12,969 nucleotides of DNA from a virus (lineage: Duplodnaviria; Heunggongvirae; Uroviricota; Caudoviricetes): the IMG/VR virus record IMGVR_UViG_2602041671_000010. One strand, 5' to 3'. Shown piece by piece: positions 1 through 12,969 of the stretch; position 1 is the stretch's first letter, and each line of letters starts with the position of its first letter. The notes below the pieces were generated by a model. That model saw nothing but the letters and a program-made list of their open reading frames with translations. It did no database searches and had not been told where the DNA came from. The translations under genes and the position numbers were made by a program.

Positions 1-463
1 ATGTCGATATGGGGATTCCCATATCGGGAACCCTACCGGATTTTTTTCCGGTTAACAGTTAATCAGGCTGGTGGGCTTTACATACCCTTGATCACCGTAA
101 TGATGATCCAGATGTGCACCTTTTCCACCAATGGCGGAAAAGCTCCAACCGTAACGATGATCGCTATGGTTGCCTCGATGGTCTGCGTGGTCATTATGAC
201 CATTCAGCCAGTGACCTTAATCAGAATTTTTCGCTAAAAAATGACGTTGGCCACGTCATCCGGAAAGCACAAAATCACGTCGATTTTTAATGAACGGTTA
301 AACCGTCTTTTTGTCACGGTGTGTCACTGGTTGTCACTCTCCGTCACGATTGAGGTGGTGGTCATTCTGCCCGACCGCGCATTTTTGCGCTATCGGGAAT
401 ATAAAACAGTTACCGCCGTCATTCAGCCAGCGCAATTTTGAGCTTTGCTTTAATCTCAGTGAG

Positions 464-745
464 TTACCGCCGTAACCGCTCCGGCTTCTTCCAGTGGTAC
501 GTGATTTTCTCCTTCTCCCGATACATCTCCACGCGGCGACGGTATGCCAGCAACTCAAGGACTCTGGTTCGTATGTTGCGCATATCCACGCCGTTAAGCT
601 CAATACCATCACGGCGCATCACCTCAGCAACCACACGCGCATAATTTTCGGCGGTCACGCTGTCCGGCTGCGTGGCCTGTTCGTCAGCCTGCTGGCTGAT
701 TCCGGCAACGCGACGGATTAATCGCAGTAGTTCGGCTTCTGTCAT
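464..745 (-). CDS. hypothetical protein (93 aa) immediately downstream of terL
   Basis: ORF in track; ATG at 745 preceded by GAGGT Shine-Dalgarno about 7 nt upstream; 13 nt after the TerL stop; no recognisable motifs. Confidence 0.5.
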   Translation of the reverse strand: MTEAELLRLIRRVAGISQQADEQATQPDSVTAENYARVVAEVMRRDGIELNGVDMRNIRTRVLELLAYRRRVEMYREKEKITYHWKKPERLRR

Positions 746-758
746 GCTGCTGACCTCA

Positions 759-2420
759 TTACACCCCGCTAAATTCTTCCAGTTTCTGGCGGTGGCTGTC
801 GCTTATATCAAAAGCAAAATCCTCATGCTCTGCCTGGAATGTACCAAACGCCATCAGCGCCGCCACGCTCGGGTCTATCTTGTTCGGTGATTTTTTCTTG
901 TTCGGCTTGATATTGGCGTTCGCGTCACTCTGCATCACGACGTTACTCATCGACCAGGACAACACCGGATCGCCACGATGCACAATCACCCTGCGGTTAA
1001 CAAAAACTTCGAACGATTTCGCCGCCGGACTGAATCTGAGGTAGGTTTGCGGGAACGGCTCCACCTCAAAACCAGCCCCCTGTAATTGCGTCCTGAGATG
1101 CGTGGCGTTCCACGTATCAAAGCCCACCAGCCTGATATTAAATTTCTCCGCATCCTGCATGATGTCATCTCTGATCCGGTCGTAATCAATGCAGTCACCT
1201 GGCGTTGTGCGTATCCAGCCCGCTTTAGCCCACTGGCGATAGACAGCGCGGTTTTTATTGGCGGGGTTCTGTAGCTGGAACTCCGGCAGATAATGACGGG
1301 AAACCAGCATGATATTTTTACCGACCGGAAAGGCATAGCACACGCTGGAAATATCGCTGGTTGATGATAAGTCCAGCCCCGCGTAACACTCCTGCCCGTG
1401 TAAATCTTCCTCCGTGAACGTTCCGGCACACTCAGCCCATGCGCCGTTACCCATCCACGGGGTAGCCCCCTGGCACCAGATATTAAATCGCTTTGTCATC
1501 ATCTCCACCCATTGCGACGGAATACCCCGCGCTTTCTGGATGGTTGAGGCCAGTTTTTCACGATCCACGGAAACATCGATGTTAGGGTTAGCCTTTATCC
1601 ACATCGCCGGATCATCAACCTCGTTTTCGTCGTCCAGCTCGTAAATCAGCACAAAAATTGAATCGTTGACCTCTTCGCCGTCCAGGATCTGGCAGCAATA
1701 ATCATAGTGCTGTTTACAGGTTGAAACGACGTTACTGCCCGATGTGGTAATGGCAAATAACAGCCCTTCGGGACGTGCGCCCATCCCCAGCTCAAGCGCG
1801 GAATAAACGCCGTTATCGGGGTGTAGGTGGTATTCGTCCACGATGGAAAGGCTTGGGTTTGTGCCCTCGATGGTTGCCGCTTTTGCTGCCAGCGGCTTTA
1901 ACAGGCTGTTGCTTTTCGGGTGCATCACCTTGTGGGCCTGAATATTCACCCGCCTGCGTAACGGTCGGGATAAAAGGCACATCTGACGCGCATCATCAAA
2001 AACGATCCGCGCCTGGTCACGGCTCACCGCTGCGGTGTAAATATCCTGCTGCCCGTTCTCCATAATCAGAAACCAGTTAGCCAGAATCGCGGCGGTCGTG
2101 GATTTCGCATTTTTGCGCGGCACTTCGATAAAGGCGCTCGTGTATTTGCGCCGTCCGGTGGCCTTAACCTTAAAGCCGAGGATGCACGCAAAGGCGAACT
2201 GCTGCCACGGCTCCAGCTCAATGGGTCTGCCACGCATCGGCCCTTTTACGTGCAGGCACACCCTGGAAAAGGCAATAAACCGCTCCACAACCTCACGATC
2301 GAACGTGTAAAGGGGGCTTTCAAGGTCCGAAAAGTACCGTTTAACGGCCTGTTTCAGCCGTTTACAGGCCGGAATTTTGCCCGTTTTTACGTCTTCTGCG
2401 TACTTATTCCAGGCGGTCAA
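759..2420 (-). CDS. terL: terminase large subunit (553 aa)
   Basis: Long ORF of typical TerL size; P-loop-like segment VPRKNAKSTTAA near the N-terminus and acidic C-terminal half consistent with ATPase plus nuclease domains; start overlaps the TerS 3' end by 17 nt as in coupled terminase genes. Confidence 0.88.
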   Translation of the reverse strand: MTAWNKYAEDVKTGKIPACKRLKQAVKRYFSDLESPLYTFDREVVERFIAFSRVCLHVKGPMRGRPIELEPWQQFAFACILGFKVKATGRRKYTSAFIEVPRKNAKSTTAAILANWFLIMENGQQDIYTAAVSRDQARIVFDDARQMCLLSRPLRRRVNIQAHKVMHPKSNSLLKPLAAKAATIEGTNPSLSIVDEYHLHPDNGVYSALELGMGARPEGLLFAITTSGSNVVSTCKQHYDYCCQILDGEEVNDSIFVLIYELDDENEVDDPAMWIKANPNIDVSVDREKLASTIQKARGIPSQWVEMMTKRFNIWCQGATPWMGNGAWAECAGTFTEEDLHGQECYAGLDLSSTSDISSVCYAFPVGKNIMLVSRHYLPEFQLQNPANKNRAVYRQWAKAGWIRTTPGDCIDYDRIRDDIMQDAEKFNIRLVGFDTWNATHLRTQLQGAGFEVEPFPQTYLRFSPAAKSFEVFVNRRVIVHRGDPVLSWSMSNVVMQSDANANIKPNKKKSPNKIDPSVAALMAFGTFQAEHEDFAFDISDSHRQKLEEFSGV

Positions 2421-2760
2421 GCTCGTCCTCTTCTTCTGTTTCCGGTGGATTTTTACGGCGGCTTATCGGGTCAAAACCGAGCAAGGAGGCCATTTTTATC
2501 ATCACTCTTTCAGCGTCGGATTTTGCGCTTAATGCGGGGTTTCTGCTCTCGCCGCCCTGACTGTTAACAATGCTGAACCCGCGCGCCGCAAGGTCTGCAA
2601 CGGCTTTCCGGTAAATGGAGTAGTTGACACAATACAGTTCCAGATTGCTCCAGTCGGCGGGGGTCAGGTCTCCCCGTTCCGCAAGCTGCCGCGATTTTTC
2701 CCGCCACTGCTTCACGGCGATGTCATCCAGGTAGGCGGGGGCTTTCGGTGGTCTTGCCAT
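2404..2760 (-). CDS. terS: terminase small subunit, P27-like family (118 aa from ATG 2760; ORF track extends to 2805)
   Basis: N-terminus MARPPKAPAYL resembles the GRPPKP-type start I recall for P27-family TerS; lies directly upstream of and overlapping terL; neither candidate start has a clear SD, so the start is uncertain. Confidence 0.72.
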   Translation of the reverse strand: MARPPKAPAYLDDIAVKQWREKSRQLAERGDLTPADWSNLELYCVNYSIYRKAVADLAARGFSIVNSQGGESRNPALSAKSDAERVMIKMASLLGFDPISRRKNPPETEEEDELDRLE

Positions 2761-2884
2761 GCTTATTTTTTTCGCCAGATTATTTTTCAAAAAATTCCCG
2801 TGCATAAAAATTTGAGGAGGCGTTCGGTGCCCGGCGGGGTCGGGTTTGTCCTGAAAACGCCCCCCACCCCGTCATACAGCCTCA

Positions 2885-3067
2885 TCAGCGATTGCGGAAA
2901 CATTCCATAACCTCGCGGTCACGGTCGGTTAATCGCTTCGCTGTGATGCGTTCTGCGCGTCCTGACGCTTTATCTTTATGCCCTGTTTCCTGTGTCTTCC
3001 ATGCGTCACGCTGCCTTATAAGTCCACGGATAAGGCGGTTTTGTTCCCGCTCATTCATCAGCGTCAT
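2885..3067 (-). CDS. small basic hypothetical protein (60 aa) between HNH and terS; may not be real
   Basis: ATG at 3067 in the frame of track ORF 2885..3289; highly charged helical-looking sequence; weak RBS; sits in a 245-bp HNH-terS gap that may instead hold a cos site. Confidence 0.3.
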   Translation of the reverse strand: MTLMNEREQNRLIRGLIRQRDAWKTQETGHKDKASGRAERITAKRLTDRDREVMECFRNR

Positions 3068-10895: not shown

Positions 10896-11086
10896 GGTTT
10901 TTATTTTCCTGTCAGTGATTCAAGTTTTATTCCGGCACGAATACAGGCCTCAGAAAAAAAGCCAGAGAACCAACAACCTCATTATTTCTAAGGCGGCATT
11001 GTGATTTCACTTTCCCTTTATCGAGAAATATCAAAACGCGTCCCGTATAATCTGACGGCACATTAAGAACTACAGGTAAGTGCGCT

Positions 11087-11281
11087 TCATAATTGTGCAT
11101 GGTGCGCCCCCTGACGAATACGGGCGGCGAACACAGCAACACAACCGTACGGGCAACGGTTACGCGCTTCGCGTTCCGTCCAGGCGGTTACGTGGATGAT
11201 TTGATGGTCTGACGCGCCAAAGGCAATAAAGCGCCAGATAAAGGCTGTTTGAGAATGTACGAGGGCAGGGGTAGTAGCCAT
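11087..11281 (-). CDS. Icd-like small protein (64 aa), paralog 2
   Basis: ATG 11281 with strong SD GAGGAGG 8 nt upstream; motifs TAFIWRF, TEREAR, VFAARI resemble what I recall of Icd-like host cell division inhibitor proteins. Confidence 0.5.
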   Translation of the reverse strand: MATTPALVHSQTAFIWRFIAFGASDHQIIHVTAWTEREARNRCPYGCVAVFAARIRQGAHHAQL

Positions 11282-11650
11282 GTTGGCAGCCTCCTCAGTG
11301 TGGTTAAGATAACCGCCACGCAAAAGGCTAATTTCGCTGGTGGCGGACTGTACAGGGTTAGCCTTACCGGACACTGAAGAAACCGGCGCGGATTGCTCCG
11401 CCCCCGTACAGCCCACCATTGATAAGGTGTGACTATGCGGCACAAAAAAACACGCGGGGCGCGTGCTGTGCGCTTCAGTTGTTTTCAGGAGGCTAATCCC
11501 GACACCCGTTTTATGAGGTGCGCGGGAATCATAGCTATTTTCGACACTGGCGATCAACTGGTTTTTTTCTCCGATATTCAGGGCCAGAAAACGCCACACA
11601 AAGGCAGTTTGTGTGTGTACAAGGTGTGGTATATGATTTACAGCAACCAT
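11282..11650 (-). CDS. Icd-like paralog 1; ATG 11650; no in-frame stop before paralog 2, so nominal product is the 187-aa read-through
   Basis: ATG 11650 with AGGAG SD 5 nt upstream; N-terminus LVHTQTAFVWRFLA parallels paralog 2; an intrinsic terminator-like hairpin (11441-11465) lies inside the reading frame. Confidence 0.4.
11441..11465 (-). terminator. terminator-like hairpin between the two Icd-like paralogs (CACGCG-CCC-CGCGUG plus U7)
   Basis: Minus-strand reading CACGCGCCCCGCGTGTTTTTTT; 6-bp stem with short loop followed by a T-run. Confidence 0.45.
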
Positions 11651-11740
11651 AACGGCTCCTAGTTTACGTTGTTGGTTAGAAGCCCCGTTACTGCTCCTAC
11701 AGTGCGGGGTTTCGTCGTTTCAACACCTTGCCTAAATAAG

Positions 11741-11792
11741 GTGTTGAACACCAATTTAAATCGAGGTGTTAAACACGTCAAGTGTTGAACAC
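11741..11792. promoter_or_regulatory. three inverted-repeat operator sites GTGTT-N-AACAC in the divergent control region, overlapping a candidate promoter for the RHH gene
   Basis: GTGTTGAACAC at 11741-11751 and 11782-11792, GTGTTAAACAC at 11766-11776; -35 TTGAAC (11785-11790) and -10 CATACT (11807-11812) at 16-nt spacing. Confidence 0.55.
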
Positions 11793-11841
11793 TTATTTTT
11801 TTCCTGCATACTGCATTTGTTTTTTATGAGGGGTGCTCAAC

Positions 11842-12021
11842 ATGGCGACAAAAGCAGTAAACGCAAAATCACAAACAGTTGCGGCAAGGGTTCCACATGA
11901 AGTTATGAACAATGTTGAGGCGGTAAAAATGCCCGGCGAAAGTACAGGGCAGTTTGTTACAGCTGCATTAAAGCGGGAAGTTGAATACCGCCAGCGTCGC
12001 AAGGCCAAAGAATCAGAATAA
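11842..12021 (+). CDS. Arc/Mnt-like ribbon-helix-helix DNA-binding protein (59 aa)
   Basis: ATG 11842 with GAGGGG SD 8 nt upstream; N-terminal beta-strand-like TVAARVPHEV followed by two short helices; upstream inverted-repeat operators. Confidence 0.6.
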   Translation: MATKAVNAKSQTVAARVPHEVMNNVEAVKMPGESTGQFVTAALKREVEYRQRRKAKESE

Positions 12022-12025
12022 TCAC

Positions 12026-12070
12026 CATCAGCGCCGTGGCGTGAGGTACTACGGCGCATTGCTTTACAGG
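12026..12070 (+). repeat. conserved 45-bp hairpin spacer, copy 1 (copy 2 at 12711..12755)
   Basis: CATCAGCGCCGTGGCGTGAGGTACTACGGCGCATTGCTTTACAGG; two-mismatch copy after the second RHH gene; contains a GCGCCGT/ACGGCGC stem. Confidence 0.6.
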
Positions 12071-12078
12071 GCAGTACC

Positions 12079-12306
12079 ATGACCAACAACACACTATCAC
12101 CAATACAAGACACGCAGACGCAAGAAGATGAAATCATTCGGCAAAGGCAGTTAGAAACCTGTGCTCGCCTTGAAGCCGAACTGGCTAATCCTCTGAATAT
12201 CCAACTAATACCGATAGAAATGAAACCTGGACTATTCGCGTTGGAGGCATTTTTAGCAAGCTGCCCACGGCGGCTAAAGTCCCGTAAGAATCGCCCGCCA
12301 GGATGA
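12079..12306 (+). CDS. hypothetical protein (75 aa) downstream of the first RHH gene
   Basis: ORF in track; preceded by a conserved 45-bp hairpin spacer; N-terminus MTNN parallels the second cassette's downstream gene (MTNK); weak SD. Confidence 0.45.
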   Translation: MTNNTLSPIQDTQTQEDEIIRQRQLETCARLEAELANPLNIQLIPIEMKPGLFALEAFLASCPRRLKSRKNRPPG

Positions 12307-12439
12307 GTACACAAAACCGAACTATGAAACGGATTATTCCGTTTCCGGGGCGTTTGTGTGTGTATAAAGAGTAAGCTATGCTCTTTTATAGCCATAATCG
12401 TTACCTCAATTAATGGTTTGGTTAGACGCCCCGTATGTG

Positions 12440-12476
12440 TTCCCATCACTGCGGGGCGTTGTTTTTTGTGCTAGTT
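12440..12476 (+). terminator. intrinsic terminator between the two plus-strand cassettes
   Basis: ACGCCCCG...CGGGGCGT 8-bp stem followed by TGTTTTTTGTG. Confidence 0.55.
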
Positions 12477-12482
12477 GTGTGT

Positions 12483-12508
12483 AATGTGTATATACACATA
12501 AACACATT
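12483..12508. promoter_or_regulatory. nested palindromic operator upstream of the second Arc-like gene
   Basis: 16-bp perfect palindrome ATGTGTATATACACAT (12484-12499) containing a TATATA -10-like element, flanked by outer inverted arms AATGTGT/ACACATT. Confidence 0.6.
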
Positions 12509-12526
12509 ATATGGAGTGTAATTGAC

Positions 12527-12706
12527 GTGTCAACACACAAAAATGAAAGGCGTGGTAATCCTCCTTTCCAGTTCCGTTTAGATCCTGACTTACGGGAAAA
12601 GATGGAAAAAGCACAACAACAAGACGGTGATGACTCTTTAGCAGCTTGGATAAAACGAATAATCCGAAAAGAATTACAGCAACGCGGTATTGAACCCAAA
12701 GAATAA
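12527..12706 (+). CDS. Arc-like ribbon-helix-helix repressor (59 aa, GTG start)
   Basis: Translation NPPFQFRLDPDLREKMEKAQQQDGDDSLAAWIKRIIRKELQQRG closely resembles the Arc repressor pattern (PQFNLRWPREVLDLVRK...); GGAG SD 10 nt upstream; 16-bp perfect palindrome just upstream; below the 60-aa cutoff so absent from the ORF track. Confidence 0.7.
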   Translation: MSTHKNERRGNPPFQFRLDPDLREKMEKAQQQDGDDSLAAWIKRIIRKELQQRGIEPKE

Positions 12707-12763
12707 AAAACATCAGCGCCGTGGCGTGAGGAACTCCGGCGCATTGCTTTACAGGTACACACA

Positions 12764-12969
12764 ATGACCAATAAAGAATCAACCAATACACCATCGCAAA
12801 AAACGAACAGAGAGCACGAAAATATGGCGCTCGAGCATGAATCAGAAAGATTCGCTCCATGCGCTTTTGTCCTTGATGAGTTTCTAAAAAAATATTCACG
12901 TTCTGAACGGATGAAAATGGCAGCACAATACGGCCCCAACAAGCAAGGTAATTGCCCACCAGCCTGATA
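12764..12969 (+). CDS. hypothetical protein, 3' end beyond the window (partial)
   Basis: ORF in track runs to the window edge; same position and MTN start as 12079..12306 in the first cassette. Confidence 0.4.

Follow-up and report, generated by a model that had tools for sequence, protein, structure and literature searches.

A predicted ribbon-helix-helix repressor and its candidate operators in the control region of a capsid-forming PICI

The window analysed here, a stretch of 12,969 nucleotides of tailed-virus DNA, contains a short control region in which three copies of one 11-bp inverted repeat lie between divergent genes. Two questions arise from this arrangement: which protein reads the repeats, and which of the two divergent transcription units does that protein control? 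A sequence-only reading of the same DNA had placed the repeats between a leftward Icd-like/replication operon and a rightward ribbon-helix-helix (RHH) gene, and had interpreted them as a genetic switch in which repressor occupancy sets the balance between the two units. The best reading of the evidence presented below is that the RHH gene and the repeats constitute an autoregulated repressor-operator module that would silence the replication operon of the island. The three sites are considered to be operators for the adjacent 59-aa RHH protein and, with it, to make up a self-contained specificity cassette, with a probability of about 0.75. The control region that houses it belongs to a capsid-forming phage-inducible chromosomal island (cf-PICI).

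The sites, their promoters and the adjacent protein

Exact copies of GTGTTNAACAC are located at positions 11741-11751, 11766-11776 and 11782-11792, with G, A and G, respectively, at the centre. The trio fits within 52 bp, with successive centres 25 and 16 bp apart, and is flanked by the start of the first leftward ORF (ATG on the complement of 11648-11650) and by the rightward 59-aa gene (11842-12021). No other match exists anywhere in the window, even when one mismatch is allowed. Only 0.02 exact matches are expected per window and three were never reached in 200 dinucleotide-preserving shuffles, which excludes a chance origin of the cluster and bears out the earlier description of three inverted repeats. 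The interval originally given for the cluster began at 11717 and thereby took in a half-site, TTCAACACCTT (11719-11729), which together with the left half of the first full site makes up a perfect inverted repeat. This half-site was considered as a fourth operator and dropped, as it is not conserved in two loci of the same class (L002 and L032), so that only the three full sites are retained from that interval.

All three sites lie on or beside predicted promoter elements. The predicted leftward promoter, PL (11753-11781, minus strand), has a -35 element TTGACG at 11781-11776, a 17-nt spacer and a -10 element TAAATT at 11758-11753, with 9 of 12 positions matching the consensus. The predicted promoter of the RHH gene, PR (11785-11812, plus strand), consists of TTGAAC at 11785-11790, a 16-nt spacer and CATACT at 11807-11812. 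Both promoters and their start sites, expected near 11746 (leftward) and near 11819 (rightward), are inferred from sequence. The first site, O1 (GTGTTGAACAC, 11741-11751), begins one base downstream of the leftward -10 element and covers the predicted leftward start. The second, O2 (GTGTTAAACAC, 11766-11776), occupies the spacer of PL and shares base 11776 with its -35 element. The third, O3' (GTGTTGAACAC, 11782-11792), lies one base beyond the leftward -35 element and contains the -35 element of PR, consistent with the earlier proposal that one repeat overlaps the rightward -35.

The rightward gene (11842-12021, plus strand) encodes a YlcI/YnfO-family protein of 59 aa and predicted RHH repressor, whose beta-strand would extend from K9 to V17 (KSQTVAARV). 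The protein matches the NCBIfam model NF041551 (YlcI/YnfO) at 59.7 bits (cutoff 30, E 2e-16), and an identical protein in RefSeq is named after this family, for which literature searches returned no functional study. Two features of RHH proteins are present: a predicted N-terminal beta-strand followed by two helices, as judged by fold comparison, and a G-x-S/T turn (G32-E33-S34-T35), in which S34 is invariant and G32 is found in at least 90% of 43 homologues. A significant match to a curated RHH sequence profile was not obtained. The protein has no Pfam family at E <= 0.01, with sub-threshold hints to the RHH-type families CB_ParB_C and PSK_trans_fac, and the small ORFs neighbouring the RHH gene have no Pfam family either. 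A sequence-profile search of the PDB gave irrelevant matches alone (E 0.3), and a Foldseek search of the PDB with the monomer model gave nothing below E 5. Direct comparison by hhalign aligned the protein with Arc (E 1e-3, probability 22%) and CopG (E 2e-3, probability 15%), in a register that places T12, A14 and R16 opposite the base-contacting residues Q9, N11 and R13 of Arc. The AlphaFold model, built with the 43 homologues, contains two confident helices around the conserved GEST turn. The N-terminal strand came out as a low-confidence helix in this model, which is that of a monomer; the strand forms only in the dimer. The protein is accordingly treated as a predicted RHH fold.

The genomic context identifies the element that carries this control region. 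Several E. coli strains carry chromosomal islands with 99.9% identity to the window, and in strain 94-3024 the island is integrated between phoQ and roxA. Read from right to left, the 94-3024 island consists of a tyrosine integrase and an AlpA-family regulator, three small rightward genes and a long leftward operon. This operon contains, in order, an 'ash' pseudogene and genes for an Icd-like protein, DUF4222, a RepA-type helicase, SSB, PerC, capsid, protease, portal, head closure, connector, HNH and the small and large terminase subunits. The integrase and AlpA genes stand together at one end of the full island (L001), just outside the window, and are recognised by Pfam as Phage_integrase with an arm-binding domain and as Phage_AlpA (65 bits). 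The island also carries its own capsid-to-terminase set (Pfam Phage_capsid and TerL) within about 15 kb (RefSeq, L001 3062-17605) and has no tail genes. Gene order is the same as in the prototype EcCIEDL933 and agrees with the published account of cf-PICIs. Both islands adjoin roxA, and the replication protein is a RepA-type AAA_25 helicase here versus a DUF927 protein in EDL933. When the whole window is compared with phages by megablast, matches are limited to parts of the terminase, portal and other packaging genes, at 75-81% identity. By its gene content the window is part of a capsid-forming PICI, which apparently occupies the EcCIEDL933 attachment site. Induction and mobilisation by a helper phage, with phage tails only, is an experimentally defined trait of cf-PICIs.

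Agreement between sites and protein across loci

Homologues of the RHH protein were collected, together with 29 loci from genomes of GTDB species. The analysis covered 27 of these, and 22 loci were aligned; the genera of the aligned loci include Escherichia, Edwardsiella, Pectobacterium, Kosakonia, Serratia, Xenorhabdus and Proteus. Most loci share one scaffold, in which a hairpin with a T-run is followed by O1, approximately 12-14 nt, O2, an invariant TCAA, an AT-rich stretch, TATACT, a site O3, a ribosome-binding site and the ATG of the RHH gene. Across many genera of Enterobacterales, about 30 loci have sites at approximately -102, -77 and either -61 or -32 relative to this ATG. The O1 position (-102) is occupied by a locus-specific 11-mer in most related loci that retain the control region, and the O2 position (-77) in nearly all loci, followed each time by TCAA. 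The leftward promoter is found in the same place in all 22 aligned loci as TTGAnn, a 17-18 nt spacer and TAnnnT. A TATACT-like -10 element for PR, of which CATACT is the window version, stands about 30 nt upstream of the ATG in 22 of 22; the -35 element of PR, weak in most loci, is a better one in the window type. The extra -61 site (O3') is confined to one class of loci (the window, L002, L006 and L032a, and in degenerate form L003), and the window type has lost the ancestral, start-site-proximal -32 site, on which most loci rely for autoregulation.

The sequence of the sites changes from locus to locus in a coordinated manner. The outer TG...CA of the 11-mer is almost invariant; the core varies between loci, and the copies within one locus match. 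The arrangement of O1 and O2 around the invariant TTGA of the -35 element is the best-conserved feature of the region, and the 11-mer core is its most variable part. Each locus's own 11-mer, with at most one mismatch, is confined to the fixed positions within 3 kb on either side, with a single exception 820 nt downstream in L012 (one mismatch).

Grouped by core, the sites fall into 12 operator classes that correspond one-to-one with variants of residues 11-15 in the predicted beta-strand of the RHH protein. The window class, QT[VLI]AA, has the site GTGTTRAACAC. Strands that begin with lysine are paired with GTGTCAGCCAC (KKLEA), GTGTCAGACAC (KKIDV) and GTGTCSGACAC (KRFDV). Among strands with QK, the sites are GTGGASTCCAC (QK[VL]Q[AT]), [GC]TGGA[GT]T[AC]CA[GC] (QKIQA), CTGGCACCCAG (QKMSA) and GTGRYGGACAC (QKTSV). 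The remaining classes pair QSVTA with GTGTAAGACAC, QMTTV with GTGAAATACAC, QALRA with GTGGTCTACAC and QSLKS with GTGTGGYCCAC. The recognition code is not a simple one, since QKTSV and QKMSA both have K12 and S14 and yet differ in their sites, and the covariation of sites and protein is partly confounded by the common ancestry of neighbouring DNA. Residues 11-15 lie in the predicted strand and vary with the site core, which lends indirect support to the RHH mode of binding, in which a dimer would place a two-stranded beta-sheet in the major groove of short repeated sites.

The loci of four RHH variants had been left out of the first comparison and served as a held-out set. An E. coli RHH protein with the KKLEA strand was predicted to be accompanied by the site known from Xenorhabdus, and GTGTCAGCCAC is indeed present at -102, -77 and -32. 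Outside this strand the E. coli protein and the Xenorhabdus proteins differ. The other three variants, with the new strands QALRA, QSLKS and KKIDV, are each accompanied by a new 11-mer at the same three positions.

A concerted change of all copies in a locus requires a locus-specific reader, and this bears on the proposal that the repeats are read by a protein of the host or the helper phage, or have a chance or structural origin with no regulatory role. Helper phages do trigger these islands, and a phage-encoded DNA-binding protein is therefore conceivable as the reader. No homologue of the RHH protein was found in 50,697 phage records by tblastn, however, so that no helper-phage counterpart is seen. 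A host factor is difficult to reconcile with sites that differ among islands of one species at one attachment site, and chance is excluded by the shuffles described above. All of these alternatives are very unlikely.

Natural exchanges between islands separate the RHH gene from its neighbours as the possible source of site specificity. The island of E. coli 2014C-3097 is 100% identical to the window at 10925-11688 and 12005-12950, and only 44-80% identical across 11689-12004. The replaced segment runs from the hairpin loop, which forms the left boundary of the exchanged cassette, through the sites to codon 54 of the RHH gene. The 2014C-3097 protein (WP_000190551.1) has the strand QSVTA, and its sites read GTGTAAGACAC, GTGTCTTACAC and tTGTCTTACAC. 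A second exchange is provided by an island of Edwardsiella hoshinae, which has only approximately 11700-12000 in common with the window (77-100% identity), on an unrelated backbone. These cases show that sites and RHH gene have been exchanged as one cassette, and both swaps support the RHH protein as the binder of the sites.

The same comparison weighs against the sites being read by another protein of the island, such as AlpA, RepA (with the repeats as iterons of an origin), the Icd-like protein or the product of a small downstream ORF. AlpA is the sole regulator experimentally shown to control these islands, clustered short repeats can be iterons, and the full island contains a one-mismatch copy of the site, GTGCTTAACAC, on the GTG start codon of the alpA-like gene (L001 15991-16001). 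In 2014C-3097, however, the Icd-like, DUF4222, RepA, second RHH, small-ORF and AlpA proteins, all encoded within 2.5 kb, are identical to those of the window and the sites are nevertheless different, so none of these proteins specifies the sites. The iteron/origin and AlpA-site readings were rejected on the strength of this allelic swap. Moreover, the RHH gene is the only one common to all loci with a site array, which AlpA, RepA, the Icd-like gene and the others are not, and a location on promoter hexamers at fixed positions is untypical of origins. Nor is the near-match at alpA taken as a sign of regulation: other loci lack an equivalent, 29 kb of sequence would contain about 1.2 such matches at random, and it is probably a coincidence. 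Overall, it is highly improbable that an island protein other than the adjacent RHH protein reads the sites.

Cassettes of this kind also occur in series. In E. coli UC4224, a cassette of the window type is succeeded by a second YlcI/YnfO cassette, which has GTGAAATACAC sites of its own, and in total three tandem repressor-type cassettes, the third of them Arc-like, stand between the replication operon and alpA (L032 2944-5415). This arrangement suggests that cassettes can be stacked by recombination at the leader and C-terminal sequences common to them. Ahead of the third UC4224 cassette is a long stretch consisting almost entirely of C, which may be an assembly artefact.

A few homologues depart from the common scaffold. 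In L004, L005 and L021 the part with O1, O2 and the leftward promoter is missing; L004 and L005 retain only a TATACT-proximal, site-like cTGTCGAACAG, and the upstream region of L021 is unrelated, so the RHH gene also occurs outside the divergent arrangement. In Xenorhabdus japonica (L022, upstream of 3001), a single hybrid site, GGTGCCAGCCACC, lies between the leader and the ribosome-binding site, which looks as if recombination between O1 and O3 had deleted both promoters.

Proposed control of the leftward operon

The position of the sites indicates how the RHH protein would act. With O1 and O2 in the core of PL, binding would repress the Icd-like, replication and packaging operon, and with the third site on the promoter of the RHH gene, binding there would lead to autorepression. 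In the proposed mechanism, RHH dimers on O1, at the leftward start site, and on O2, in the spacer beside the -35 element, would exclude RNA polymerase from PL and keep the Icd-like, RepA replication and packaging genes silent during the integrated state. Occupancy of the third site, on the -35 element of PR, would add negative autoregulation. The earlier interpretation is supported, with refinements: RHH operators in the divergent control region are borne out by their fixed positions, the agreement of copies within a locus, the pairing of core and strand and the swap between near-identical islands. Two of the three sites are inside the PL core, however, and the layout therefore points to repression of the leftward operon combined with autorepression more than to a switch that balances the two units.

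Release from repression can be proposed from the layout of the island. The gene alpA is oriented leftward toward the RHH gene, so that one possibility is AlpA-dependent transcription through the cassette. The best guess is that such leftward transcription would start at the int-alpA end and run antisense through the RHH gene; an alternative guess is that a helper-phage antirepressor would lift repression. Binding of the RHH protein to the sites, the direction of regulation and the manner of its relief are all inferred here.

The leftward unit that PL would serve begins with a leader, after which come the RNA elements isrK and C4 and then an Icd-like gene, all on the minus strand. The first ORF (11087-11650), annotated in RefSeq as an 'ash family protein' pseudogene, starts with an N-terminal Icd-like remnant (MVAVNHIPHLVHTQTAF...). 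Within it are isrK (11521-11445; Rfam 61.8 bits, gathering 50), the C4 antisense RNA (11423-11336; 75.4 bits, gathering 45) and the Icd-like gene (11281-11087; NCBIfam phage_ICD_like, 62.4 bits), and the ORF reads as a fusion of the Icd-like remnant, the RNA elements and a complete Icd-like gene. The genes for DUF4222 and the RepA helicase (Pfam DUF4222 and AAA_25) follow further left of 11087. With C4 and isrK both above gathering and upstream of an icd-like gene, the unit has the composition of P1/P4-type RNA immunity. A promoter scan also identified a second promoter-like site, TTGATC-18-TATGAT (11557-11528), that ends 7 nt before the start of the isrK model and from which part of the leftward unit could be expressed outside the control of the operators. 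By analogy with P4, this suggests a two-promoter layout with RNA immunity as a second layer of control.

A narrower role for the RHH protein would be that of a local autoregulator, insulator or antitoxin-like regulator of its own small operon only, with the replication operon under isrK/C4 RNA immunity and AlpA. Several observations make this role unlikely. Two of the three sites are in the core of the leftward promoter rather than at the RHH promoter, and it is the setting of O1 and O2 around the -35 of PL that is most strongly conserved. The gene downstream of RHH is not conserved between loci, which makes a toxin-antitoxin pair unlikely. Finally, isrK and C4 are absent from the 20 other RHH-cassette loci searched, all of which retain the operator-promoter arrangement, so that the RNA elements are an add-on in the controlled operon, outside the operator cassette. 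Repression of the leftward operon by the RHH protein thus remains the preferred reading.

Autoregulated RHH repressors with several short operators on divergent promoters are a well-known kind, represented by Arc/Mnt, CopG and omega. At P22 immI, the RHH repressors Arc and Mnt act at the divergent promoters Pant and Pmnt, with one 21-bp Arc operator, and ant is the gene controlled. The sequence similarity of the window protein to Arc is marginal, as the hhalign values above indicate, and the present arrangement differs in having three separate 11-bp sites and in that the Icd-like, replication and packaging genes of a satellite, instead of ant, would be controlled. The plasmid RHH repressors CopG (pMV158) and omega (pSM19035) use a different repeat unit from the 11-bp, GTG-N5-CAC-like one found here, where the family is YlcI/YnfO and the element is an integrated satellite. 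What is new is the YlcI/YnfO family, the satellite context and the cassette behaviour.

Among satellites, the closest parallel in layout is the stl-str region of SaPIs and other Gram-positive PICIs. Stl (Rpr) is a larger, unrelated protein of helix-turn-helix type that is inactivated by binding a phage protein. Its gene is likewise divergent from a replication/packaging operon, with operators in the intergenic region; the candidate described here differs in being a 59-aa RHH protein, and integrase and alpA have the same orientation as the main operon. The leftward unit of the window also resembles immI of P4 and P1 (CI/C4 antisense RNA, seqA/isrK and icd) in its order of isrK-like, C4-like and Icd-like elements, and the combination of a regulated upstream promoter with a promoter next to the RNA element resembles PLL and PLE of P4. 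The operon promoter is under the C1 repressor in P1 and under Vis and Delta in P4, neither of which involves an RHH protein.

The published work on PICIs provides the background for this candidate. Gram-positive PICIs are silent under a master repressor of the Stl type, which keeps them quiescent until helper phages inactivate it. For Gram-negative PICIs, the existence of a repressor is termed "unclear" in the literature. AlpA is reported to be required for induction of the prototype, with helper phages switching alpA on, and the published cf-PICI work explains induction by the activator AlpA alone, with no mention of a repressor or operator. A published survey treats isrK and C4 as relatives of P4 seqA and CI and records them in Gram-negative PICIs. 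Searches of the literature on YlcI/YnfO, on PICI with ribbon-helix-helix and on cf-PICI with repressor found no description of the module reported here.

Additional elements and the cassette region of EcCIEDL933

A GC-rich hairpin followed by a T-rich run (11679-11713, plus strand, with a tail to approximately 11721) lies between the operators and the first leftward ORF. Compensatory changes occur in 13 of its 22 predicted pairs across 20 loci. The alignment contains 33 G.U cells and no A.C cells when read on the plus strand, which indicates that the hairpin is selected on that strand. The structure resembles a terminator for a short RNA transcribed rightward, which would be antisense to the first leftward Icd-like ORF at its ribosome-binding site and start codon. 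An E-value search of 11500-12969 against Rfam assigned no family to the hairpin. A plus-strand promoter for the RNA was sought and none was identified; the conserved upstream bases double as codons, on the other strand, for the conserved TQTRP motif of the Icd-like protein.

A second, paralogous cassette is present farther right (12482-12706, plus strand). It comprises an Arc-like 59-aa ORF (12527-12706, containing ...PPFQFRLDPDL...) with a weak match to NF041551 (E 5e-4), a predicted leftward promoter and a palindrome at 12482-12509. The promoter, TTGACA-16-TATAAT (12533-12506), agrees with the consensus at 12 of 12 positions, and the start codon of the ORF adjoins its -35 element. Transcription from this promoter, were it not repressed, would cross the first RHH gene in the antisense direction, heading for the replication operon. 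The leader region 11560-11720 is repeated at 12340-12470, and the second cassette region (12337-12969) also holds a 67-aa ORF. A GC-rich stem-loop, GCGCCGT...ACGGCGC, follows both RHH-type genes (12027-12056 and 12714-12745) and the EDL933 homologue as well. Each copy stands just before a small ORF starting MTN or MTD and may be a terminator or a processing site.

A related region can be recognised in the prototype island. Downstream of alpA in EcCIEDL933, RefSeq annotates a hypothetical ORF of 247 aa (L033 42170-42913; NZ_CP008957.1 1682169-1682912), known as a 'variable gene of unknown function'. The opposite strand contains a 63-aa Arc-like ORF (SPQFRMRISPELKEQF..., L033 42613-42804; complement of about 1682612-1682803 in NZ_CP008957.1) homologous to window 12527-12706 and a 62-aa ORF (L033 42382-42570) homologous to window 12764-12967. 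RefSeq annotates the small ORFs in 94-3024 and the long antisense ORF in EDL933. The sequences available for a coding-strand comparison of this region, based on the codon positions of substitutions, are highly diverged and indel-rich. The main-operon promoter of EcCIEDL933 has the -35 element TTGACA, and its -10 region is flanked by two GTGGTCACC sites, located in the spacer and at the start site; next come the leader and the MVAVNHIPHLVHTQT ORF known from the window. A divergent small-repressor arrangement therefore seems to be general in this group.

From these elements a wider proposal can be made, tentatively and with the odds against it: YlcI/YnfO-type RHH cassettes may supply the master repressor, or immunity determinant, that has been missing from Gram-negative PICIs and cf-PICIs. 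The cassettes would be exchangeable, would comprise at least 12 specificities and would in some islands be stacked in tandem, each locking a promoter aimed at the replication operon, with a related cassette unannotated in EcCIEDL933. AlpA would then induce the island by overriding the cassettes, for example through convergent antisense transcription across the RHH gene. If this is true, satellites that pass from genus to genus would fall into immunity or incompatibility groups set by their cassettes.

The candidate Gram-negative PICI repressor is now concrete, consisting of a 59-aa protein and three 11-bp sites on the predicted promoter of the replication and packaging genes, and the natural allelic swaps predict which protein would pair with which DNA site. 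For the uncharacterised YlcI/YnfO family this constitutes a first functional hypothesis. The comparisons further suggest that the variable region downstream of alpA, including that of EcCIEDL933, contains specificity cassettes on the strand opposite to the current annotation.

A more distant YlcI/YnfO-family gene is located in a lambdoid prophage of EDL933 (L033 8983-9168, minus strand), where it is divergent from, and 41 bp away from, an HNH endonuclease-TerS-TerL cluster. This position hints that the family may regulate prophage packaging genes too.
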